DNA of 64,000 nucleotides from a virus: the UHGV virus genome UHGV-0275551; one strand, written 5' to 3'. Positions 34,294 to 63,612 of this stretch are shown here, piece after piece. A program made the translations under genes and the position numbers. Within the stretch, counting starts at the first letter, position 1; every line of letters begins with the position of its first letter. The notes below the pieces were generated by a model. The model saw only the letters and a list, made by a program, of their open reading frames with translations, ran no database searches and was not told the DNA's origin.

Positions 34294-34940
34294 TTATAAA
34301 ATTTTATCGGTTGTCCCAACCTCTGGGTCACCATCATATGTGAATAAAATATCTATCCTTCTTAACAACCTCCTTAGTCTTACTCTCTATATAGTTATAT
34401 AGTACTATATAGTATCTTAGTAACTATCTAGTGGTCTTAATAGCCCCCCTGTATAAGCCTTCTAACTAGCCCTTTAATAAGCCCTCTAAACACTCTTCTA
34501 ACAAGCCTTCTTAACAACCTATACAATCACCTTAACCATCTCTCTATACCCTCTTAGAAGCTCCTATACACCTCTTAATCTCTATGTCAGCTATGATACC
34601 CTCTATAGATGTTCACTAGGTACTACTAAGCCTCTATATAGACTGTTTTAACAAACTTAACAGGAATATCTTCACAGACCTTATCTCACAAGGTCTAACA
34701 CGGTACTAACAAGGTATCTTATAAGCCTGTTTCTACCTGTATTTTTAAAAGACTGTATAGGTAATTATTCAGAATTTTAAAATTTTTATAAAATAAGACT
34801 ATCAAGTCATTTTTTAGGGTCTTTGAAGGAACTCAAAAATATCTGTAGAAGATGTATATCTGCTTGGTAGCCCTTAACAACTCCCTTACAAGTACTTTGC
34901 AAAATTTTAAAATATCCTTAACAATCTCTTAACAGTTCTC

Positions 34941-35013
34941 ACAAGCTCTTAACAACTCTTCAAAGCTCTTAACAACTCTTCAAAGCTCTTAACAACTCTT
35001 CAAAGCTCTTAAC
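34941..35013. repeat. tandem direct repeat, 20-bp unit x 3.6
   Basis: aagctcttaacaactcttca repeated head-to-tail three times plus a partial copy. Confidence 0.8.
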
Positions 35014-35895
35014 AGATTCTTAACAGAACTAACAAGGATGTAACAGTTTCTTAACAGTTGATACATAGGCTTTACAGAATCTTAACAGATGACTAACAAG
35101 AGCTAACAAGTTAATTTTTAAGAGTTATTTTGTAGGGATAATTAACAAGTTCCTAACAAGTGTTTAATCTTTTTAACAAGCTATTAACATGGTCACTATC
35201 TCTTTTCTTATCGTTCCCTTTCCCTCTTAGTGATTCTCTAAATAGCCCTCTTAAAAGCTCTCTATAGCTCCTTGTAAGCTCTTTTAAGTCTCTTCCTAGT
35301 AATTACACCCCAACTATACAGACACCTCTTTATAGGGCTTTACAGAGGCTTTAAAGGCTATGCTAAAGACTCTTACAAGGCTTTTACGTGGTCTTAACAG
35401 AGATTTAACAAGGGGCTAACAAGTCTCTAACAAGTGCCTTAAAAGCATAACTATGTAGGGATTGTTAAGAAATTGTTAAGAAAATGTTAAGGGGGCTAGC
35501 ATTTACGTAACTTTATAGCCTCTTTTACGTAACTTTTGAGTAACTTTATAGCCCCTATAACATACTTTAAAGGAACTACCAAGCCCTTTTTAGTAGTTCA
35601 CAAGAATACTAACGAGATGATAAAGCTTACACCCTTATAAGATTCTTCTAAGGCTCTGGGAAGCTCTATAAAGGGCTTTTTAGAGTGGGTTAATATGATT
35701 GCTTAAGTTAGGTTGATAAGGCTGTTATAGAGCGTTATAGAGCGTTTAAGGGGTTGCCCTTCCCTTTCGGGTTATGGGCTTATATTTAAGTTGATTTGAT
35801 AAAAGGTTATAGAGTAGACTATAGAGTTATTGCTTTTAAGGTCTGATAAGATTCTGGAAAGGGAAGGGAAAGGGTTGTATAAGGATTTGATAGAC

Positions 35896-35920
35896 GTAAA
35901 AAAGCCCCATTTAAGGGGCT
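35896..35920 (-). terminator. rho-independent terminator at the distal end of the small-gene array
   Basis: agcccc-atttaa-ggggct hairpin followed on the minus strand by TTTTTTAC. Confidence 0.55.
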
Positions 35921-35958
35921 GTAAAGGTATCTGGGGCTATTTAGCCCCGTTGCGTCGA

Positions 35959-36207
35959 TTAGTTGTAGCCTTGTTTGCTGTAGTATAGAGAGACAATCAA
36001 GTCACCCCAATAATGGTAGTGAGATTCCTCGTTTATGGCTTCTTTTACGGCATCTTTCCAGAAGTCATCAGTAGGGTTATAATCTGGTATCACCTGCTGA
36101 ATCAGCATTTTGATAAGGTCAAAGGTGTTATCTGTTCCACCGATATCGAATTTTGCATCAAGTTTGTGGCAGCCATAAGCATTAACAGTTACGCGGATAG
36201 TTGACAT
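35959..36207 (-). CDS. hypothetical small protein (cassette gene, family-A leader)
   Basis: 82-aa track ORF; ATG directly follows the conserved SD of leader 36208-36274. Confidence 0.5.
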   Translation of the reverse strand: MSTIRVTVNAYGCHKLDAKFDIGGTDNTFDLIKMLIQQVIPDYNPTDDFWKDAVKEAINEESHYHYWGDLIVSLYYSKQGYN

Positions 36208-36274
36208 AATTTAGATTCTCCAGTTTAGGACTTTGTTTAGTGGGAAGGTCATTCCCTCCCCGTTGATTAGTAAT
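36208..36274 (-). repeat. family-A leader element (5'UTR hairpin + SD)
   Basis: sense actaatcaacGGGGAGGGAATGACCTTCCCCactaa...cctaaactGGAGAatctaaATG; 8-bp stem incl. G:U. Confidence 0.6.
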
Positions 36275-36299
36275 TTACTGCATATTGGCGTAGGTTGCA
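36271..36299 (-). promoter_or_regulatory. sigma70-like promoter for 35959..36207
   Basis: -35 TTGCAA, 17-bp spacer, -10 TAAATT; the TAA of the -10 is the stop codon of the upstream gene. Confidence 0.45.
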
Positions 36300-36538
36300 A
36301 GCCTTTTTTCGTTGTATTTTGTCAGAATTTCACAAGATAGAACATCGTACATTGTAACCGCTTTGCTTTTGTCGAGGTCAAAAAAGCCAAATGCTTTACC
36401 ATCTTTGAATCCGACAACTTCGTAAGATTCTTTAATGATTTCACCATTGAACAAATCACTTTCGATACGGTGAAACAACGCTACGTCTTCTTTGTTAGTT
36501 GCAATCTGCAATAGTGTGGTTAATTCTACGTGTTCCAT
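36275..36538 (-). CDS. hypothetical small protein (cassette gene, family-A leader)
   Basis: track ORF 36275..36643 shortened to the ATG at 36538 that follows the conserved SD; the upstream extension reads through the leader. Confidence 0.5.
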   Translation of the reverse strand: MEHVELTTLLQIATNKEDVALFHRIESDLFNGEIIKESYEVVGFKDGKAFGFFDLDKSKAVTMYDVLSCEILTKYNEKRLATYANMQ

Positions 36539-36605
36539 TTTTGAATCTCCTAGTTTAAGGACTTTACTTAGTGGGAAGGTTAATCCCTCCCCGTTGATTG
36601 ACAAT
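36539..36605 (-). repeat. family-A leader element
   Basis: gaatctcctagtttaaggactttacttagtgggaaggttaatccctccccgttgatt on plus strand. Confidence 0.6.
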
Positions 36606-36631
36606 TTACAGACTTTTGATTGTCTCGTCAA
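36603..36631 (-). promoter_or_regulatory. sigma70-like promoter for 36275..36538
   Basis: -35 TTGACG, 17 bp, -10 TAAATT overlapping the stop of the 36606..37136 ORF. Confidence 0.45.
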
Positions 36632-37136
36632 TATCTTTTTCAATATCTTTTAAAGTTTTTTCTAAGTTCTTGATATTGAAGGATAAGCCTTCACCGAGAG
36701 TCTTAGAATAACCGCTAGGACGTAAATCATAAAGGCAAATTTGTTCTACATTGGAGAGGTTGACCATTTCACCGCTTACATCATAAGCTATTGATACGGT
36801 GTTTTCAGGGGCTTTATAGAACTTGTTAAGATTCTTGATAGAACGTTCATAAGCCATTTTATAACCATTTAAAAGGTCTTTAACGTGGTTGCGAACGTTT
36901 TTACACTCATCTAAGTAAATACCTAAGAATAGCGGTAACAGTTCTGCTACAGCTTGCATAAAGTGAGATACTACAACAGTAGAAACATTACGACGATGTA
37001 TATAATAAGCCCCGTTTTCTGATTTAGTGATAGTTGCAAAGTGTACACCGTTGCAACGAAATTCGAAGGTATCTTTAACGGGTTTAGTCATAACGTTAGA
37101 TGAGCGAATGTAGTTGATAGCTTGAAACTTGTTCAT
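36606..37136 (-). CDS. hypothetical protein (cassette gene, family-A leader)
   Basis: 176-aa track ORF; ATG follows conserved SD of leader 37137-37200. Confidence 0.55.
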   Translation of the reverse strand: MNKFQAINYIRSSNVMTKPVKDTFEFRCNGVHFATITKSENGAYYIHRRNVSTVVVSHFMQAVAELLPLFLGIYLDECKNVRNHVKDLLNGYKMAYERSIKNLNKFYKAPENTVSIAYDVSGEMVNLSNVEQICLYDLRPSGYSKTLGEGLSFNIKNLEKTLKDIEKDIDETIKSL

Positions 37137-37200
37137 TTTGAATCTCCTAGTTTAAGGACTTTACTTAGTGGGGAAGGTCATTCCCTCCCCGTTGATTAGT
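37137..37200 (-). repeat. family-A leader element
   Basis: gaatctcctagtttaaggactttacttagtggggaaggtcattccctccccgttgatt. Confidence 0.6.
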
Positions 37201-37229
37201 ACTATACTTGTTTTGATTTGCCTTTGCAA
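37201..37229 (-). promoter_or_regulatory. sigma70-like promoter for 36606..37136
   Basis: -35 TTGCAA, 17 bp, -10 TATAGT immediately upstream of the leader hairpin. Confidence 0.5.
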
Positions 37230-37356
37230 GCAATTTTTAAGTTTATCTATAAAGAATCTATTAAGTGAATCCCTTTTAGATAACCCCCTCGAACAAAGTT
37301 ACCAATGTCAATGGGTATTGTCAACACTTTTTTAAAAGTTTTTTGTAAGTTATTGA

Positions 37357-37698
37357 TTAACTTATGAATATTTTTTCAGGCTTTACATAGCTGATACGCT
37401 GACTTTTTAGCAGGTCATCCCAGATTAAAGCGGCAATATGTGCATAACCGGATTCACGTAAAAGCTTCATTGTTTTACTTCTCGTTTCAAAACGGCTTGC
37501 GTAGTATTCACTGTTCAAGGTCGTTTTATTCCCTTCGTTATCTGTATGGATGATTTGCATCACTTGAAAGGGGCTTACACCCTCGCCTTTGTTCCACTGT
37601 TCAAAGTATTTTAGGCACTGCATAGGTGACATCTTATCACTTACTTGAGTTGACCAAGATGAGCCAGCTTTATCGGTAATTACGGTTACATAAGCCAT
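37357..37698 (-). CDS. hypothetical protein (cassette gene, family-B leader)
   Basis: 113-aa track ORF; ATG follows conserved SD of leader 37699-37783. Confidence 0.5.
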   Translation of the reverse strand: MAYVTVITDKAGSSWSTQVSDKMSPMQCLKYFEQWNKGEGVSPFQVMQIIHTDNEGNKTTLNSEYYASRFETRSKTMKLLRESGYAHIAALIWDDLLKSQRISYVKPEKIFIS

Positions 37699-37783
37699 TT
37701 TAGAATCTCCAGTTTAGGATTTAGTGGTAAAGCTCTTTATCTGGGGCTTACTATACAGACTAATAAGCCCCATGTAAAGTACT
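37699..37783 (-). repeat. family-B leader element
   Basis: sense ...GGGGCTTA-(loop)-TAAGCCCCagataaagagctttaccactaaatcctaaactGGAGAttctaaATG. Confidence 0.6.
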
Positions 37784-38032
37784 TTAAGCGTCTTTATATT
37801 CTATCTCTGTGCACTCACCTTTTACTAGCTCAAAGGTCCAAATAATTCGTTTATACTCAATCACTACTACAGTAACAAGGTCAGTCCTCTTCTCATTGGT
37901 TTTAAAGTCTATTGTGTGGGTATACTCATAACTAGTCTTATCCTTAATTTCCCCGTAGCGTCTACACTCTTTATAGACTTCATCCATTAAGCCATTGCTA
38001 ACCATGTTTTTTAGTTGAGTTTTAGTATACAT
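37784..38032 (-). CDS. hypothetical small protein (cassette gene, family-A leader)
   Basis: 82-aa track ORF behind leader 38033-38105. Confidence 0.5.
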   Translation of the reverse strand: MYTKTQLKNMVSNGLMDEVYKECRRYGEIKDKTSYEYTHTIDFKTNEKRTDLVTVVVIEYKRIIWTFELVKGECTEIEYKDA

Positions 38033-38105
38033 TTTTTGGAATCTCCTAGTTTAAGGACTTTACTTAGTGGGGAAGGTCATTCCCTCCCCGTTGATTGATA
38101 ATTTA
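38033..38105 (-). repeat. family-A leader element with adjacent -10 TAAATT
   Basis: same GGGGAAGG..CCTCCCC hairpin and SD as other family-A copies. Confidence 0.6.
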
Positions 38106-38125
38106 CAGACTTTTATCAGGCTTGT

Positions 38126-38359
38126 CTAGTCTTTTTCAATGATAATTTCATATTGACCATCGACACTGTCGAAATAGATTCCTTCGTCATCTTCTGTCTT
38201 AAAGTAACATTGTATATCATCACTGGCGGGGTAGTCTTGTCTTGCTATCTGGCAAACTTGAATAGCATTTTCTTTACTTCCTGTAAACTCTTCAAGCCCT
38301 TTAAAGTCACATGAATGGCCGTTACAAATGGAAAGGATGAGATAAATGGTTGTAAGCAT
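38126..38359 (-). CDS. hypothetical small secreted protein
   Basis: 77-aa track ORF; hydrophobic N terminus MLTTIYLILSICNG; no family leader, preceded by hairpin cccc-tgtaa-gggg. Confidence 0.4.
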   Translation of the reverse strand: MLTTIYLILSICNGHSCDFKGLEEFTGSKENAIQVCQIARQDYPASDDIQCYFKTEDDEGIYFDSVDGQYEIIIEKD

Positions 38360-38425
38360 GATTTAAGCCCTCTAAAAGCCCCTGTAAGGGGTTAATCAGT
38401 GTTTATAAGGTGAATGTATAGGTTT

Positions 38426-38968
38426 TTAGAAAAAGACCTTTAAATCACTCTCTACAATGTTTTCTGTCAGTGTATCCATGATGTCACAAAAAACCTGAAT
38501 ACTGTCGGATTGTTGGATACTTTTAGCAAGTAGCTCCAATGTTTCATCAAGATAATTTAAATTTGGGTTATCCAGTGAAGGGAGACAAAAAGGTGAATAC
38601 ATAGCGTTGAACTCTGTTGTATAGACCTTTTTAATCCAATTTACATCAAAGTACTCTGTAAAGCTTGCTATATTTGACACGTTATCACAAGAATAATCAT
38701 CATTTAGCTCATCCTCTGGAATGTCAAGTTCTAAGATAACAATATTTTGAGTTTTCATCTGAAAAGCTGCCGTGATAGTGGCATTTCCTAGAGCTTGCTG
38801 GATACCTTCCGATGCTATCTCTTCCTCATCATCACCATAGAGTTTATTTTCTGGGTACACGTAAAAATTGCCGTCCATATCCGAACAATTCCATACACCT
38901 GATGGTTTATCACCGTTATTAATCAGGTTGATAAAGTTTTCTTGAGTAGTACCGTGAAAGCATTTCAT
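38426..38968 (-). CDS. hypothetical acidic protein (cassette gene, family-B leader)
   Basis: 180-aa track ORF behind leader 38969-39061. Confidence 0.5.
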   Translation of the reverse strand: MKCFHGTTQENFINLINNGDKPSGVWNCSDMDGNFYVYPENKLYGDDEEEIASEGIQQALGNATITAAFQMKTQNIVILELDIPEDELNDDYSCDNVSNIASFTEYFDVNWIKKVYTTEFNAMYSPFCLPSLDNPNLNYLDETLELLAKSIQQSDSIQVFCDIMDTLTENIVESDLKVFF

Positions 38969-39061
38969 TTTGAATCTCCTAGTTTAAGGATTTAGTGGTA
39001 AAGCTCTTTATCTGGGGCTTACTTTATCGAACTATAAGCCCCTTGTAAAGTACTTTATCAG
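38969..39061 (-). repeat. family-B leader element incl. promoter-like TTGTCA - 17 bp - TACTTT
   Basis: agtggtaaagctctttatctggggcttac...taagcccc..gtaaagtactttatcagttaattt on plus strand. Confidence 0.6.
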
Positions 39062-39259
39062 TTAATTTTTGACAACTTTTAAAACTGCAAGATAACCTAA
39101 GCAATAAGAATCACCGAAGAGAGTTCTACCCATGAAAGAATCATCTTTGATATCCTTTGCAGTGACTGTTTTTTCTACGCCGTGGGAAAGAACTACATCA
39201 CCAACTTTAATGTCTTTGATGTGCGTGGTTTCAATGGTTAAACCGTTGATAATAGCCAT
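39062..39259 (-). CDS. hypothetical small protein (family-A leader; ends ...VVKN)
   Basis: 65-aa track ORF; C-terminal codons and stop lie inside the conserved family-B element downstream. Confidence 0.5.
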   Translation of the reverse strand: MAIINGLTIETTHIKDIKVGDVVLSHGVEKTVTAKDIKDDSFMGRTLFGDSYCLGYLAVLKVVKN

Positions 39260-39323
39260 TTTGAATCTCCTAGTTTAAGGACTTTACTTAGTGGGGAAGG
39301 TCATTCCCTCCCCGTTGATGTGT
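39260..39323 (-). repeat. family-A leader element
   Basis: gaatctcctagtttaaggactttacttagtggggaaggtcattccctccccgttgatg. Confidence 0.6.
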
Positions 39324-39352
39324 AATTTAATCTATCTAAAAATCAGTGTCAA
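39324..39352 (-). promoter_or_regulatory. sigma70-like promoter for 39062..39259
   Basis: -35 TTGACA (perfect), 17-bp spacer, -10 TAAATT. Confidence 0.55.
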
Positions 39353-39360
39353 TAAAATTT

Positions 39361-39765
39361 TTAGAGTTCTGCATAAATTGCGTCGCAGATGTCACGAAAG
39401 TCATGATTTGCCAAATTACGTTGTAACCAAGTGGCAAAGAAATCAGCGATTGCAAAATTAGCATCATACTCAACAGATAGCCACACTTTCACGGCAAATC
39501 TAAACATTTTCAAGTCTAACTCTTTATTCATTACCTTAGATTTGCCTAACATGTCGACCATTTCATATTGTGCACCGTCTAGCGTGATACCTGCTGCAAC
39601 GTCAGCCAATGAGTTTTTTACGTTTTCAACGTCTAAGATAACGCTTTGAATCTTTCCGATAATGTTGTGCAATGTTTCATCCGGTGCTGATGATGTAATA
39701 ACATTGATTCGATTAACGGTTAAACGTGCTTTTAAGATTGACAACTCACGATTATTAATAGCCAT
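39361..39765 (-). CDS. hypothetical protein (cassette gene, family-B leader)
   Basis: 134-aa track ORF behind leader 39766-39850. Confidence 0.5.
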   Translation of the reverse strand: MAINNRELSILKARLTVNRINVITSSAPDETLHNIIGKIQSVILDVENVKNSLADVAAGITLDGAQYEMVDMLGKSKVMNKELDLKMFRFAVKVWLSVEYDANFAIADFFATWLQRNLANHDFRDICDAIYAEL

Positions 39766-39850
39766 TTTAGAATCTCCAATTTAGGATTGAGTGGTAAAGC
39801 TCTTTATCTGGGGCTTACTGTACAGACTTATAAGCCCCCTGTAAAGTACT
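39766..39850 (-). repeat. family-B leader element
   Basis: gaatctccaatttaggattgagtggtaaagctctttatctggggcttac...taagcccc. Confidence 0.6.
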
Positions 39851-40123
39851 TTATACTAAGTGCAATTTTTTACCTTTTACTATAATGTAACTCGATGTGC
39901 TATTGCTGCAAACATCCTGATAAATTCTGCGCAAACGTCCTTCATAGTATACTTTCCAGCTAGTTGGAATCTTTTTGCCGTATCCGGTAGCAGTTTTTTG
40001 GAGTCCTGCGAATTGCCAATCTAAGATATGTTGCTCAGCCTGTAAATCCTCAAAGTGCATCACACCGTCTACATAGTGACGTAGAGTGACATTTAAAGTG
40101 AGACCGTTGTTAGTAGTATACAT
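39851..40123 (-). CDS. hypothetical protein (cassette gene, degenerate family-A leader)
   Basis: 90-aa track ORF behind leader 40124-40187. Confidence 0.45.
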   Translation of the reverse strand: MYTTNNGLTLNVTLRHYVDGVMHFEDLQAEQHILDWQFAGLQKTATGYGKKIPTSWKVYYEGRLRRIYQDVCSNSTSSYIIVKGKKLHLV

Positions 40124-40187
40124 TTTAGAATCTCCTAGTTTAAGGACTTTATTTAGTAGGGTGGTTATTGCCTCCCCGTTGATGTGT
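40124..40187 (-). repeat. family-A leader element, diverged hairpin
   Basis: tagtagggtggttattgcctcccc in place of tagtggggaaggtcattccctcccc. Confidence 0.5.
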
Positions 40188-40216
40188 AATTTAATCTATC
40201 TAAAAACCAGTGTCAA
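40188..40216 (-). promoter_or_regulatory. sigma70-like promoter for 39851..40123
   Basis: -35 TTGACA, 17 bp, -10 TAAATT; flank nearly identical to the 39324-39352 copy. Confidence 0.5.
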
Positions 40217-40545
40217 CAGTTTTGTTTTCGTTTGCTCAACTCTTGAACAATTACAGTATGATAGTCTTTTAAGTCACTAATATTTAAAGCATTTATCAGA
40301 GAATTATAATCATCGACTAATTGAAAATCATCTTTGAAAATGTCGCTGATTTGATAAGCTCTCGCCCTGAATCTGAAGCTCATTTCTAACCGCTTTAATT
40401 GTTCATCGCTCAACCGCTCTAGAAAGCTCATTACAAGGCTATTGCTAACCTGTTGTGTGATTGCCTTATTTGCTAGATTATAGGCTTTATATGCCTTATA
40501 GAGCGCGAAAATGGCAATGATTGCAGTGATACCAGTCATTAACAT
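40213..40545 (-). CDS. hypothetical membrane-anchored protein
   Basis: 110-aa track ORF; N-terminal TM (ITAIIAIFALY); overlaps upstream gene by 7 nt, no own leader. Confidence 0.45.
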   Translation of the reverse strand: MLMTGITAIIAIFALYKAYKAYNLANKAITQQVSNSLVMSFLERLSDEQLKRLEMSFRFRARAYQISDIFKDDFQLVDDYNSLINALNISDLKDYHTVIVQELSKRKQNC

Positions 40546-40835
40546 GGTGCTTCCTCTTTACGTGACACTTTGCCATTTACAGTTATCTCATAAGAATCTA
40601 GTAAATCGCTTTTAGATTTGACAGGACTTTTAAGAGTATCATCATAGATATTGACTTGCAATACAGGTTTTTTATACTCCCTGCAACTATTCCATAAGCA
40701 AATCACTACACGACGACCTTTTATTTTGCCGTGTAACCATTCCATAACATCATGGCTATTTCTTGATGTTTCAATGAAATCAATTTTGTTGAGTAATTTG
40801 CTTAGATTTTCACGAACTTTATTTGATAATTTCAT
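40539..40835 (-). CDS. hypothetical protein (cassette gene, family-B leader)
   Basis: 98-aa track ORF behind leader 40836-40923. Confidence 0.5.
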   Translation of the reverse strand: MKLSNKVRENLSKLLNKIDFIETSRNSHDVMEWLHGKIKGRRVVICLWNSCREYKKPVLQVNIYDDTLKSPVKSKSDLLDSYEITVNGKVSRKEEAPC

Positions 40836-40923
40836 TTTTGAATCTCCAGTTTAGGATTGAGTGGTAAAGCTCTTTATCTGGGGCTTAAGATACCAACTTT
40901 TAAGCCCCTTGTAAAGTACTTTA
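40836..40923 (-). repeat. family-B leader element
   Basis: conserved hairpin GGGGCTTA..TAAGCCCC and SD. Confidence 0.6.
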
Positions 40924-41133
40924 TCAGTTAATTTTCAGCTTTGCATAACCTCTCATTGTACGAATTGGAGATGTTAAGGCTACGCGTCTAATATATGCCT
41001 TTTTTGTGTATACATTTGTCTTTCCGATAGTGTTTACACATGTAAAAAGATTTATTGGTGAATTTTTTAACTTCAACTGTTTATCAGCCTTCACACCCCA
41101 TCTTACAGCAGATTGTTTTCCGTTGTCAACCAC
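40924..41133 (-). CDS. hypothetical protein (GTG start) or 3' part of a frameshifted cassette gene
   Basis: 69-aa track ORF with GTG start and poor RBS; the family-B leader ATG at 41213 opens a 23-codon ORF in another frame that stops at 41142. Confidence 0.3.
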   Translation of the reverse strand: MVDNGKQSAVRWGVKADKQLKLKNSPINLFTCVNTIGKTNVYTKKAYIRRVALTSPIRTMRGYAKLKIN

Positions 41134-41213
41134 TTTCCCGCCTAACTTTTCGCTATGATGCGAGCGTCATCACGAGTTTTTACAGGAATTACAACGTTTT
41201 TGATAGTAGCCAT

Positions 41214-41301
41214 TTTTGAATCTCCAATTTAGGATTTAGTGGTAAAGCTCTTTATCTGGGGCTTACTTTATCGAACTATAAGCCCCTTGTAAAGTACTTT
41301 A
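41214..41301 (-). repeat. family-B leader element
   Basis: gaatctccaatttaggatttagtggtaaagctctttatctggggcttac...taagcccc. Confidence 0.6.
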
Positions 41302-41682
41302 TCAGTTAATTTTGAAGATTGTTACATAACCATCACTACCGATGATTTGAGACACTCCAGCTTTTTCTACTTGATAGCCCATATTTTCAAGATGATAAAC
41401 AGCATCATCGTAACCATATGCGCCACCCTGATAACGTCTCTTATCGCATCTTATCAGGTTTTTACCACGTCCAGCAAGTGCATGTAAAATGGCTTTTTCG
41501 CTTGAAAGAGTACCATCTAGCATTGTCGCCGTGTAATGGTTGATTTTATTCCCATTGATATCATACTTAAAATTAAACGAGTGAACAACAATAACGTTAC
41601 CTTTAAAATTCTCATCAAGTGACTTCTCCAGTGCGTTGCGAAAGTTGTCTTTGTTGATGAATTTAGGTGCACGGTATGCCAT
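41302..41682 (-). CDS. hypothetical protein (cassette gene, family-A leader; ends ...FKIN)
   Basis: 126-aa track ORF behind leader 41683-41750. Confidence 0.5.
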   Translation of the reverse strand: MAYRAPKFINKDNFRNALEKSLDENFKGNVIVVHSFNFKYDINGNKINHYTATMLDGTLSSEKAILHALAGRGKNLIRCDKRRYQGGAYGYDDAVYHLENMGYQVEKAGVSQIIGSDGYVTIFKIN

Positions 41683-41750
41683 TTTGAATCTCCAGTTTAG
41701 GACTTTATTTAGTGGGGAAGGTCATTACCTCCCCGTTGATGCAAATACTA
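41683..41750 (-). repeat. family-A leader element
   Basis: gaatctccagtttaggactttatttagtggggaaggtcattacctccccgttgatg. Confidence 0.6.
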
Positions 41751-41947
41751 GATAACCCCGTTCAAAGAGTCAAGAAAAATTTTAAAAATATTTTTGGAAA
41801 AACTGTAATGAAACGTGCGCACACGACTACCACAAAACAGAACACAAATCAAGAATTATTTTTCAACCCGCTACAAATTTTTCTCTTGACTTTTGGGGAG
41901 AGGTGGAGTAAGAGGGGGAGAGGGGTTGGTCTGGCTCTCTATAAAAA

Positions 41948-42140
41948 CCTACCTGCACGATTCTAAAATGATTTTTCTTGCCCGACCTGAGCGGGGTCTG
42001 CACGTTTTGAAAATGAAAAAGCTCTTTGGAGATTACCTGCACAGTTTGAAAATGAATTTTCTCTTTGGAGTTCAAAATTCTCTCTACAGATTTCTCTACA
42101 GAACTCTACCTGCACAATCCTGAAATGAAAAAGCCCTCCT
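41948..42140. repeat. four dispersed direct repeats of about 35 bp in the intergenic region
   Basis: copies of cctgcacNNttNtNaaaatgaNNtt at about 41948, 41995, 42032 and 42104. Confidence 0.55.
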
Positions 42141-42201
42141 TACCTGAAAAATTTACCAGATAAGGAAGGCTTAGTCTATTGTAAATATTATACAGAGTTT
42201 C

Positions 42202-42987
42202 TTAGTTCTTTGCGTCTAAGAAGGTAACTTCTGGTGAAGAGAAGACCGTCTCGATATCCTCATCAGTTCTTGCATAAATATATGTATCTGCATCACTGCC
42301 AAATGTTACGGCTATCCTGTGATTGCTCTTCGACAGGTGGGTAACTAGAGCGTTACTTAGAGACATCTTCTCAACCGGAGGGTTACTTTGATGTATCTTA
42401 CCTTTTCTTCGTCTGAAGAGGGTAACTGTATCATCTTTGAACGTTACTACACCTGCAAAGTATTCTGGTTCACAGTAGTTATTCCAACCTGAGCGTAACT
42501 TGTGGTACATCTCTCCTTCGTAGACATACAGATAAACATCTACACTCTTCATCACCTGATTAATGATAACTGTGACGGCTTGAGGGTCAAGTCCACCGAT
42601 ACCTGCACCAATCATAGGTAAACCAACCTTCTTCAACTGATTAACTTCACAGTATCTGTTAAGCTGTTTCAAAGATGACTCTAAAGCACTGTATCGGGCA
42701 TCTTTACCAGTCTTAAGCTGAGTGTAAAGGTTAGCTATACGACCTTGTTTTAAACGTGCTACAGAGAAATTACCCAGTAAATTTTCACAAGGTTTGTGTC
42801 CTATACCACCTGCATATAGATAAACTTCTGTATCGGTCTCATATGCTTTTGGGTAAAGTTTAGAAATCTTGTCAGCGATACCTGCACCCATTAAGTTCAT
42901 ACAGTTGCAACCGTGACCGATGATGTCAAACTTACCTTTATCAAATGCGGCAAAGATATCACCATTAATTATTTTTACAATACCCAT
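42202..42987 (-). CDS. macro-domain protein with about 100-aa C-terminal extension
   Basis: 261 aa; N-terminal IINGDIF...DIIGHGCNCMNLMGAGIADKI resembles the macro-domain ADP-ribose-binding signature. Confidence 0.55.
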   Translation of the reverse strand: MGIVKIINGDIFAAFDKGKFDIIGHGCNCMNLMGAGIADKISKLYPKAYETDTEVYLYAGGIGHKPCENLLGNFSVARLKQGRIANLYTQLKTGKDARYSALESSLKQLNRYCEVNQLKKVGLPMIGAGIGGLDPQAVTVIINQVMKSVDVYLYVYEGEMYHKLRSGWNNYCEPEYFAGVVTFKDDTVTLFRRRKGKIHQSNPPVEKMSLSNALVTHLSKSNHRIAVTFGSDADTYIYARTDEDIETVFSSPEVTFLDAKN

Positions 42988-61337: not shown

Positions 61338-63572
61338 CTAAACACCACAACCCTCGCAATAAGCATCTTGCAGTGCAGATTTACCTACACCAATGCGACT
61401 GTTAAGGTAGTACATGGTTTTCATACCTACCGAGTTGGCATAAATCATGTACTTCAAAGCTTGAGCCAATGATACCTTCTTAGCTTTTGCGTAGTCAACA
61501 TAGAAATCTGAAGAGATAGCTTGACCAGTGAACTTTTGAACAATTGCATAACAATCAATCAGGTCAAAGGTGTCAATACCCCAAGCAATTTCATATACAT
61601 ACTTCAACTCTTCATAATCTGGAACAATAAACAGTACGTTACCAGTTGCAGACTTTTTAGTTAAAATAAAGTCACGAATTGGATACAAGCCATTTGTCGT
61701 ATTGGTTGCCAGTGAAGAACTCTCATTAGGCATGTAAGCTTCTAATACAGAGTTTCGGATTCCACCATTTTCTTTGATACGTTGTGCTAAGTCATCCCAA
61801 TCATATCGTAGTTTTGCATCATGCTTTTCATCAATCTTCTTGTTAGCTGTCTTTGGAGGAACCCAGCCTTCAGGATACTTAGTGAACTTCATGTACTCTG
61901 GCACGCCACGTTCTTTAGCAAGTCTCAGAGAGGCTTCATGCAGATAGTAAGAGTGCATCTCTGCCAGTTCATGAAGTTTCGTTTTACCTGCTCGTGAAGA
62001 GTAGTTCACGTAGTTCTTCGCAAGGTAATGAGCCACATTTGTAAGGCCAATCCCAACAGAACGACGCTTCTGAACGTGGTTACGCATCGACGGATACGGA
62101 TAATCCATAAGGTCAATAATGGAGTCAACCATTGCAAGAGCATAATAAGCAACGTCAGCGTATTCATCTTCTGAAATTCTCCCTGCAACCAAACTAGCTA
62201 GGAAGCAAAGAGCCACCTCACCATCCTCTTTCACAGCATCGTCTCTGTAAAGGTCTGTCTCTTTCTCAAAACCATACACTGGCAACACAATTTCCATACA
62301 AAGATTTGACATCTTCAATGGTTCTTTAAATGGTGTATGTGTGTTCGCATTGTTAGTGAAGAATGGATACACACGACCTGTAGCATAACGCTGTTGAATA
62401 AACAGCTTAGCAATTTCACGAGCCTTTACTCGTCTGTGCTTAACTCCTGAATGTACTGCGTGACCAACTGCCATAGCAAACTCGTCAGCAGATGCTGTGT
62501 AGAACATGTCATAGAGTTTTGGTGCATCTTTGTAAGAGAATAGCAACCAATCCGTATCATACTGAACACACTGCCAGAAATAATCGTTTGTGCCGAATGA
62601 GTAGTCCATCTCATTAATACGTTTAGAAGGAACCGTTGTAGGGTGCTTCAAACGCAGTAAGTCCTCAATCTGTGGGTCTAGAGCAGTGTAGAAGTTATTA
62701 GCTGAACCACCACGGCTCTTCTGTTTATTTGCCTCTACAGATGAACGTACAAGCTTGTAATAAGGTAGCTTACCCATGTGCTCAATCGTGTTTTGACGGA
62801 TACCATCGCCAATAGTGCGAGTCTCCATCAGCATCCCGATACCAGCTTGCTTTGTAGTCATGTCATAAGCAACCTTTGCAGCAATACCGAGAGATTCGGC
62901 AGTATCATTTGCCTTAATCAAACAGCATGACGCATAGCCCGATTTAGTTGCTCTTAACCCGTTTAAATAGGGCGTAGGAGCGTTAATCTTCAGGTCAGAT
63001 AGGTAAGTGTACAGCTTGATAACATCTTGCAGTCTACGGTGCTTTGGTTGCTTCTCAAAGGCTTTCATAGCCATACCCATGAACATAAATTGTGGTGACT
63101 CAAACAGTCTTCCCGTTTTAATATCACGGATACCGTACTTGTCTCTGAACTGTTTCAAGACTGCATAACCGTAAGAGATATCTTTTGAGTGCACGATGTA
63201 ACCTTGCAGGTATTCAAGCTCTTCCTGTGAATAATCCATCTTCTCCCAAAGTCCTGCTCTCTCCATATTTTTAACGAAGGTAATCAGCGTAGGAACCTTA
63301 GTAAAGCCTCCAAAGGCTTCTTTGTAGATAATACCCAAAAGCAGTCGTCCAGCCATATCTGAGTACTCTTGAGTTTGTTTATCAACACAAACATCAATCA
63401 TGGCTTGGTGCATCTCTTTTGTAGTGCAACCCTCATAGACACGTTTCATAGCTTCCATAGTGACTTCTGACCAGATAATTCCACGTTTATCTGCCCATGA
63501 TGCCCACTTATTCAGTCTTTCTGGGTCAAAGCTTACTACTGTACCATTTGATTTTTTAATTGTCTTAATCAT
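61338..63572 (-). CDS. nrdA: ribonucleotide reductase large (alpha) subunit, class Ia
   Basis: 744 aa; active-site NLCMEI motif and C-terminal CEGCG cysteine pair. Confidence 0.8.
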   Translation of the reverse strand: MIKTIKKSNGTVVSFDPERLNKWASWADKRGIIWSEVTMEAMKRVYEGCTTKEMHQAMIDVCVDKQTQEYSDMAGRLLLGIIYKEAFGGFTKVPTLITFVKNMERAGLWEKMDYSQEELEYLQGYIVHSKDISYGYAVLKQFRDKYGIRDIKTGRLFESPQFMFMGMAMKAFEKQPKHRRLQDVIKLYTYLSDLKINAPTPYLNGLRATKSGYASCCLIKANDTAESLGIAAKVAYDMTTKQAGIGMLMETRTIGDGIRQNTIEHMGKLPYYKLVRSSVEANKQKSRGGSANNFYTALDPQIEDLLRLKHPTTVPSKRINEMDYSFGTNDYFWQCVQYDTDWLLFSYKDAPKLYDMFYTASADEFAMAVGHAVHSGVKHRRVKAREIAKLFIQQRYATGRVYPFFTNNANTHTPFKEPLKMSNLCMEIVLPVYGFEKETDLYRDDAVKEDGEVALCFLASLVAGRISEDEYADVAYYALAMVDSIIDLMDYPYPSMRNHVQKRRSVGIGLTNVAHYLAKNYVNYSSRAGKTKLHELAEMHSYYLHEASLRLAKERGVPEYMKFTKYPEGWVPPKTANKKIDEKHDAKLRYDWDDLAQRIKENGGIRNSVLEAYMPNESSSLATNTTNGLYPIRDFILTKKSATGNVLFIVPDYEELKYVYEIAWGIDTFDLIDCYAIVQKFTGQAISSDFYVDYAKAKKVSLAQALKYMIYANSVGMKTMYYLNSRIGVGKSALQDAYCEGCGV

Positions 63573-63588
63573 TTTCGAATCCTACAGA

Positions 63589-63612
63589 TGAAAAGAGCCT
63601 CCGAAGAGGCTC
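63589..63612 (-). terminator. rho-independent terminator upstream of nrdA
   Basis: gagcctc-cgaa-gaggctc hairpin followed on minus strand by TTTTCATCTG. Confidence 0.5.

Follow-up and report, generated by a model that had tools for sequence, protein, structure and literature searches.

Short direct repeats that make up a unique cis-acting site are known from several phage and plasmid systems. The iterons of the lambda origin (four 19-bp O-protein sites), of P1 oriR, and of F, R6K and pSC101 comprise three to five repeats of about 17-20 bp in the same orientation, which lie at a single non-coding locus amid promoters and AT-rich DNA, and whose core is conserved while the spacers drift. The R sites of lambda cosB and the pac boxes of SPP1 are likewise several short direct repeats that form a unique cis-site. 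In phage T5, the first-step-transfer segment makes up 7.9% of the genome, and its inner end is occupied by non-coding repeats that are conserved (bioRxiv 10.1101/866236). This T5 injection stop region lies about 8% in from one end of the genome, borders small early genes with host-type promoters, and contains inverted repeats, palindromes and eight DnaA boxes inside a terminal repeat of about 10 kb. Among RNA elements, the ToxI antitoxins and the phiTE pseudo-ToxI consist of 37-45 nt units with an A-rich AAAU element in each, a promoter-like element upstream and a hairpin downstream. The array of repeats described here has features in common with each of these systems, and appears to belong to the known direct-repeat docking arrays, with a function that we infer.

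The window, by which we mean the whole stretch of 64,000 nucleotides that was analysed (virus genome UHGV-0275551), is by its sequence a Felixounavirus. It contains four same-orientation copies of GCAC-N6-RAAATGA at 41955-42128, all on the plus strand, between the gene for a macro-domain protein and an array of small early genes. The features of the locus are these:

41302-41682, minus strand: first gene of the early small-gene array (126 aa, phrog_4495, unknown function)
41745-41773, minus strand: sigma-70-type promoter TTGACT-17-TAGTAT of the first gene of the early small-gene array, part of cassette module DR_6 in wV8
41886-41914, plus strand: promoter-like element TTGACT-17-TAAGAG, with a weak -10, directed into the repeats; the TTGACT is conserved
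41895-41925, plus strand: polypurine, G-rich tract GGGGAGAGGTGGAGTAAGAGGGGGAGAGGGG, 31 nt
41953-41971, plus strand: repeat unit 1, CTGCAC GATTCT AAAATGA (core GCAC-N6-RAAATGA at 41955-41971), 36.2 bits
41998-42016, plus strand: repeat unit 2, CTGCAC GTTTTG AAAATGA, followed by AAAAG-CTCTTTGGAG at 42017-42031, 38.4 bits
42037-42055, plus strand: repeat unit 3, CTGCAC AGTTTG AAAATGA, followed by ATTTT-CTCTTTGGAG at 42056-42070, 38.8 bits
42081-42104, plus strand: short tandem duplication TCTCTACAGATT / TCTCTACAGAAC, within the long spacer between units 3 and 4
42110-42128, plus strand: repeat unit 4, CTGCAC AATCCT GAAATGA, 43.0 bits
42131-42172, minus strand: intrinsic terminator of the macro-domain gene (17-pair stem, 8-nt loop, T-run)
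42202-42987, minus strand: macro-domain 'phosphatase' gene (Pfam Macro, E = 1e-7; phrog_335 phosphatase, E = 4e-113)

A preliminary description of this DNA had noticed four direct repeats, and these are borne out, with starts at 41953, 41998, 42037 and 42110, all on the plus strand. Their start-to-start spacings of 45, 39 and 73 bp agree with the 40-70 bp that had been given, but the spacing is irregular and not, as had been said, regular, and the original consensus was only approximate: unit 2 starts TCTGCAC and unit 4 ends GAAATGA. The AAAAAG tail of unit 4 is the T-run of the adjoining minus-strand terminator. The units are asymmetric, are arranged head-to-tail without dyad symmetry, and have half-site centres (GCAC and RAAATGA) about 11.5 bp apart, or approximately one helical turn. 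When the pattern CTGCAC-NN-TY-N-T-RAAATGA was searched for in the whole 64 kb window with one mismatch allowed, the four units were matched against 0.05 matches expected by chance, a count of four was reached in 0 of 100 shuffles, and there was no further match anywhere in the window. A looser pattern, allowing up to two mismatches, gave 10 matches against 4.5 expected, which is background, and only the four sites are exact. For scoring at genome scale, we used a weight matrix derived from related phages and a composite genome of about 88.7 kb, made up of the window and the missing 24.7 kb supplied from wV8; the four units score 36-43 bits and the next best site 15.9 bits. The motif is therefore confined to its four copies and does not recur at comparable frequency elsewhere in the composite; it is such recurrence that had been named beforehand as the sign of a compositional artefact. 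A dispersed phage promoter motif was rejected, there being zero other copies in the genome.

The array is housed in an intergenic region of 519 bp (41683-42201) that shares 97.5% identity with Escherichia phage wV8. This region has matches in 258 phage records, almost all from Felix O1-type myoviruses (Ounavirinae), with about one copy per genome. The flanking genes are all on the minus strand, and the repeats as written are antisense to them. The macro-domain gene flanks the array on the left in every lineage examined, which makes it a syntenic anchor, and we have considered that it might be functionally tied to the array; in the old Felix O1 record AF320576.1, the macro-domain gene (ORF29) was likened to the T4 'tk-vs intergenic region' protein. 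The hairpin terminator and the purine-rich tract that had been seen next to the repeats were both located: the hairpin, at 42131-42172, belongs to the minus-strand macro-domain gene and is annotated as its terminator in wV8 and ASO1A, and the tract is the G-rich one at 41895-41925. The latter is a canonical G-quadruplex motif in most relatives (Felix O1, wV8 and Mooglevirus among them), whereas the copy in this window is broken by GGTGG. In a subgroup of Felixounavirus (L006, L008, L009, L059, L179 and others) the tract is replaced by an unrelated module with one or two extra ACCTGCAC half-sites; phages with this alternative module have a better plus-strand promoter, TTGACT-17-TAGCCT preceded by TGn. 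The corresponding promoter-like element of Kolesnikvirus, TTGACG-18-TATACT, also has a better -10 than that of this phage. An inverted duplicate of the -35/UP part of the gene-array promoter is present (41765-41779 versus 41880-41894, 87% complementary), and yields a divergent promoter-like pair, about 100 bp apart, that flanks an AT-rich stretch. This stretch, 40 bp with 85% AT, is separated from unit 1 by about 180 bp in this phage and from the array by about 220 bp in Kolesnikvirus; L049 is the only lineage in which it adjoins the array, and its position thus differs between lineages.

Beyond the first promoter of the gene array, a block of small minus-strand genes extends over 35500-41800 of the window with at least 14 TTGACA/TTTACA-17-TAnnnT promoter-like sites. 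Each gene of the block has its own sigma-70-type promoter, and the repeated promoter/terminator modules are annotated DR_1 to DR_9 in wV8. From its organisation, the block looks like a recombination-shuffled early 'host-takeover' module beside the genome end. The genomes of Felix O1-type phages end in direct terminal repeats of about 0.6 kb (PMC4837284; PMC8303462). For Pr103Blw, a direct terminal repeat of 581 bp has been annotated, and its homologue is at about 34866-35496 of the window, which makes it probable that the window contains the physical genome ends; BLAST aligned this stretch in two pieces with an overlap of about 58 nt, and the overlap points to a small duplication or indel at that place in the repeat. 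On the linear map the array is at 82.1-82.3 kb. It is about 6.5 kb inside the right terminal repeat, the right physical end is about 7.1 kb away, or 7.9% of the genome length, and the early gene block occupies the space between the array and the right terminal repeat. Unlike the cosB and pac repeats, the array is 6.5 kb from the cut ends, too distant to define exact ends, and because the terminal repeat is so far away we rejected both a terminal repeat and a pac site or other packaging site. No small terminase subunit has been identified in Felix O1 (PMC3185647).

How widely is the array conserved? Scanning 2.9 million viral contigs for two copies of the pattern gave 28 loci, all of which, except L013, are in contigs of approximately 50-94 kb with repeat regions alignable to that of the window. 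L013 is a chance tandem duplication unrelated to the array, and most of the pattern matches in genomes and metagenomes were unrelated tandem repeats, many of them coding. Three to five copies of the unit are found at the same syntenic position in Felixounavirus, Mooglevirus, Kolesnikvirus, a Hafnia-type lineage and the L049 lineage, and the lineages outside Felixounavirus keep the array although the remaining intergenic sequence is not alignable. Mooglevirus (Mordin, ESh20, ESh22, HP1) has four units with spacings of 45, 39-41 and 75-77 bp. In Kolesnikvirus (Erwinia phage Ea_Tu10 and relatives), four TATGCAC-N6-RAAATGA units with spacings of 39, 37 and 37 bp lie between the G-rich tract and the terminator of the upstream gene, which is a 'phosphatase' in related records. 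Hafnia phage SarahDanielle and 'Listeria' phage LPML1 have four TAAGCAC-N6-AAAATGA units with spacings of 53, 43 and 55 bp, and L049, a further lineage of 88 kb, has about five units. Some Felixounaviruses have three units, with a mosaic junction exactly within unit 2. Across 24 units from six phages, positions G0, C1, A2, C3, A11-13 and T14 are the same in 24/24, and A16 and C22 in 23/24, C22 being a C six bases 3' of the motif. The N6 is A/T-rich yet variable, the 5' flank is lineage-specific (ACCT, CTAT or ATAA), and there is variation in the flanks in general, in the sequence between units and in the spacing. When 22 distinct sequences from Felixounavirus and Mooglevirus are aligned, the core columns have a mean pairwise identity of 0.979, the N6 columns 0.726 and the spacer columns 0.767, values biased upwards by the partial selection of these sequences by motif; because of that selection, the comparison across genera is the cleaner evidence. 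A core that is fixed while the N6, the sequence between units and the spacing change argues for selection on a two-part recognition site. Overall, the array is real, non-random, non-coding and evidently under selection.

What might such an array do? In our preferred reading, the four units would be head-to-tail, two-part recognition sites, GCAC-N6(A/T-rich)-RAAATGA, and since the half-site centres are about one helical turn apart, both would face the same side of the helix. A two-part site of fixed length, with an A/T-rich gap and a single orientation, would suit a protein that contacts two successive major grooves. The array could then be viewed as a docking platform, acting at the DNA level, for a sequence-specific protein that is probably phage-encoded, and on this platform the protein would assemble into a single nucleoprotein complex just past the terminator of the macro-domain gene, where the terminal early gene module has its inner border. 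Replication might start from this complex with the T7-gp4-like primase-helicase and the PolA-type polymerase, possibly aided by transcription from the adjacent promoters. The uniqueness of the site, its absence from the gene-array promoters and its hub context together lead us to rank an origin-type, iteron-like cis-site first. That the array is a selected protein-docking array, as a general statement, we regard as reasonably probable; the statement as a whole, a docking array with an origin role, is put forward tentatively, and the origin role specifically is possible and still somewhat doubtful. The sequence comparisons establish that the repeats exist, that they are unique and non-coding, and that their core, place and copy number persist across genera; protein binding, action at the DNA level and origin function are what we infer.

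The surroundings of the array resemble a regulatory or origin-like hub, with the inverted -35/UP duplicate, the AT-rich stretch, the G-rich tract and, in other genera, lineage-specific extra sets of repeats. The replisome is T7-like, with a Toprim and DnaB_C primase-helicase, a type that in T7 starts at promoter-associated origins. As in iterons, there are four direct repeats with a 17-bp core, in one orientation and at a single locus, and three to five copies in relatives. In contrast to iterons, the array has no recognisable or adjoining initiator gene, its spacing of 37-73 bp is wider and less regular, and its AT-rich stretch is about 180 bp away. Comparison with Pfam and PHROG found no DNA-binding or initiator domains in the neighbouring genes, and no initiator with a Rep, O or DnaA-like domain was recognisable there or in the replication module; many small proteins are of unknown function. 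The only recognisable DNA-binding protein that we found is of the Cro/C1 HTH type (wV8 gp91), and a protein of that type is expected to prefer dyad-symmetric sites. Mapping of an origin by GC skew was uninformative, because cumulative GC and AT skew follow the direction of transcription and display nothing at the array. A strict architecture would not seem to be needed, given the irregular spacing (45/39/73, 39/37/37 and 53/43/55) and the natural three-copy variants. Given the plus-strand promoter-like element upstream of the units, a role at the RNA level is conceivable.

Could the array instead govern transcription, or be transcribed or translated itself? The preliminary description had suggested operator or other protein-binding sites. 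This suggestion is partly supported. Protein-binding sites is the best-supported general reading of the array, in view of half-sites that are invariant in five lineages, of the variable gap and spacing, and of a region that is non-coding and unstructured as RNA; the operator part of the suggestion is not supported. The units lie 180-350 bp from the closest promoter of the gene array (41773-41745), neither overlapping nor abutting it, they lack dyad symmetry and regular spacing, and the motif is in none of the at least 14 other minus-strand promoter-like sites at 35.5-41.8 kb, so that a classical operator of the downstream early gene array is unlikely. A unique site that is missing from so many promoter-like sites makes a general early-gene operator unlikely and favours a function exerted once per genome. 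None of the look-alikes considered (sigma-54, CRP, IHF, Fis, MotA box) fits by eye when set against its consensus sequence. The array might also mark a transcriptional boundary, where a phage or host protein on the four sites would separate the rII-macro operon from the early array as a roadblock or insulator, or would regulate the promoter-like element at 41886-41914, or the first promoter of the gene array at long range. It is exactly between the terminator and the first gene-array promoter in all lineages, one HTH regulator is encoded elsewhere in the genome, and in the Hafnia-type phages four GTAAA repeats (two pairs of them N5-spaced, the spacing of CpxR boxes) abut the neighbouring TTGACA. 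By RT-PCR of Felix O1, several genes of the gene array also belong to those transcribed earliest, and the genes on the rII side come later (PMC3185647, Table 3). The distance of 180-350 bp to the closest confirmed promoter, the lack of dyad symmetry and the absence of the motif from every other gene-array promoter nevertheless weigh against a boundary element, as does the strong intrinsic terminator that already insulates the rII-macro operon, and we consider it unlikely. A small protein gene with an internal peptide repeat, such as the 54-aa, minus-strand gene 13 of wV8, would account for a minus-strand ORF of 50 aa with a GTG start (41963-42115), in which units 1-3, with distances of 45 and 39 nt, share a frame in this phage. 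However, this ORF has no ribosome-binding site, it is missing, in another frame or on the other strand in Mooglevirus, Kolesnikvirus and the Hafnia-type phages, the unit spacings of relatives (41, 37, 43, 53 and 55 nt) and indels that are not multiples of three destroy the frame, and careful annotations leave the region empty. The annotations themselves disagree (a 54-aa minus-strand gene in wV8, a plus-strand gene in Mordin, two minus-strand genes in ESh20, a 97-aa plus-strand gene in ESh22, and none in ASO1A), and there is no ORF common to the lineages. A coding gene was rejected and is barely conceivable; the array is non-coding, and the conserved non-coding element argues against the small ORFs annotated over it in many records. 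A structured RNA or known RNA family is also unsupported, since the predicted folds of the two strands are no more stable than those of shuffled sequence (z = -0.81 and -0.12) and the best Rfam matches are far below gathering scores, with no family assigned. Might the plus strand encode an RNA without such structure, four modules of which are bound or cut by an RNA-binding protein, for example as a decoy for an endoribonuclease of the ToxN type (a type III toxin) in the manner of phiTE pseudo-ToxI? The layout of a promoter-like element, 37-45-nt units and a hairpin would fit, and ToxN genes are common on plasmids of E. coli, Salmonella and Enterobacter. ToxN cleaves at the motif AA^AU/GAAAU, which is contained in the invariant AAAU(G)A. 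A toxIN locus (L064/L136) even has 37-nt ToxI units that read GATGCAC-N6-AAAATGA. Against this, the ToxI arrays of plasmids from E. coli, Klebsiella, Enterobacter and Pectobacterium with which we compared the units are strictly tandem and 95-98% identical, with the core AGGTGA...GCTACC...AAGTGC, whereas the phage units lack that core. Tandem Repeats Finder detected no array in the window, and in Kolesnikvirus found a period of 37 with 3.9 copies and a match of only 70%, compared with the 95-98% of ToxI. There is no toxin gene alongside the array, as beyond the hairpin there is only the macro-domain gene on the opposite strand, the plus-strand -10 of this phage (TAAGAG) is poor, and the RNA folding of the array is not significant. 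BLAST found no similar array in 5,426 E. coli genomes and 72,556 plasmids, none was found in the species representatives of Enterobacterales, and the other metagenomic tandem arrays that match the motif are not beside ToxN-like genes. Real ToxI arrays are near-identical tandem repeats with a conserved pseudoknot core, while the phage units have only the 11-base core in common, are unequally spaced, and have neither a toxin partner nor a look-alike in the host. After the pattern scan, the comparison with ToxN plasmid loci and the BLAST searches, a mimic of the ToxI type is unsupported, and an RNA of this kind is very unlikely.

Two further explanations place the array in the history or the delivery of the genome. 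It could be a functionless remnant, in which local duplications of the terminator tail were homogenised by recombination, and which is at most a hotspot between mosaic modules. Unit 4 overlaps the T-run of the terminator, units 2 and 3 have a similar AAAAG-C tail, the mosaic junction of the three-copy variants falls exactly within unit 2, and several metagenomic contigs and one GenBank record break beside the array. Yet neutral duplicates would not hold 11 core positions invariant across genera with unalignable flanks while the N6 and spacers drift, nor would they keep three to five copies in one syntenic place, and such an origin of the array strikes us as quite improbable. The array is also reminiscent of the T5 injection stop signal, and would in that case be a site at which DNA entry pauses and is handed over: entry would begin with the right end and its early gene array, and would halt at the repeats for as long as early proteins are lacking. 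The repeats would then mark the inner end of the first-entering early module, built from a distinct, phage-specific, two-part motif. The parallel in position is striking: like the T5 region, the array consists of conserved non-coding repeats close to 8% in from one end, its distance to the right physical end being about 7.9% of the genome, and the segment between repeats and end contains small genes with their own sigma-70-type promoters. Moreover, the Kolesnikvirus units CTATGCACA/TTATGCACG agree with seven of the eight specified positions of the DnaA box, the consensus of which is TTWTNCACA. The units of this phage, on the other hand, match only 4-5 of the eight, nothing in the T5 model corresponds to the conserved AAATGA half, and the agreement in percentage with T5 may be coincidence; two-step DNA transfer has never been reported for Felix O1. 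A good match to DnaA boxes is confined to the units of Kolesnikvirus and L049 and is poor in the phages of E. coli and Salmonella, which excludes DnaA as the common factor. The T5 region is also far larger, whereas here four short direct repeats lie outside a terminal repeat of about 0.6 kb. We regard an entry-pause site as highly improbable; if it were true, staged genome delivery would reach beyond the T5 group.

In the Felix O1 genome paper, direct repeats were reported only from 24 bp upwards and at other places, and temporal regulation was described as not understood (PMC3185647). The papers on Felix O1, wV8, UAB_Phi87 and VpaE1 do not mention the array, and our search of the literature found no transcriptomics, mapping of transcript starts or mapping of origins for any Felixounavirus. 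Within the literature searched, the array is apparently an undescribed conserved cis-element. Felix O1-type phages are widely used in Salmonella typing, biocontrol and therapy. A unique cis-element kept in at least five lineages would be a small target (about 180 bp, with 11 invariant bases per unit) for finding an origin or a key regulatory protein, and in genome engineering, the removal of the seemingly 'empty' intergenic DNA at the array could be harmful.

Several smaller observations concern the array and its surroundings. In SarahDanielle and LPML1 (L039 1340-1395 and L040 1345-1396), the four direct GTAAA repeats beside the array abut TTGACA/TTGACT, and form two pairs spaced GTAAA-N5-GTAAA, the arrangement of CpxR boxes. 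In L049 (600-760), about a dozen TGTTAA(A) repeats are found beside the array in a stretch of about 160 bp that is approximately 80% AT. Two records with Gram-positive host labels, OK283618.1 (L040, 'Listeria phage LPML1') and GU169904.1 ('Staphylococcus phage SA1'), contain Ounavirinae sequence with the array, and the labels point to contamination or a mis-assigned host. Three independent assemblies, L010 and L017 (IMG/VR contigs) and MK482690.1 (L002), all terminate in or beside the polypurine tract, and in L017 a Nextera adapter is fused at GAGTAAGAGG; these ends are likely to reflect a break at the mosaic junction or G-rich DNA that is hard to sequence, and not a physical end. The complete toxIN locus L064/L136 (L064 in an Acetatifactor MAG) consists of a promoter, about two 37-nt ToxI units, a terminator and the ToxN gene; L064 came from the pattern scan of species-representative genomes, its toxin matches Pfam ToxN_toxin with E = 2.7e-47, and the cleavage-site region of its ToxI coincides with the phage motif. 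Finally, the best match outside the array, at 15.9 bits, is the translation start region of nrdA (AGGATTCGAAAATGATT; window 63561-63592, minus strand, and L038 27765); the units look like phage ribosome-binding regions with GCAC in place of GGAG, and are on the strand opposite to the starts of the genes of the gene array.
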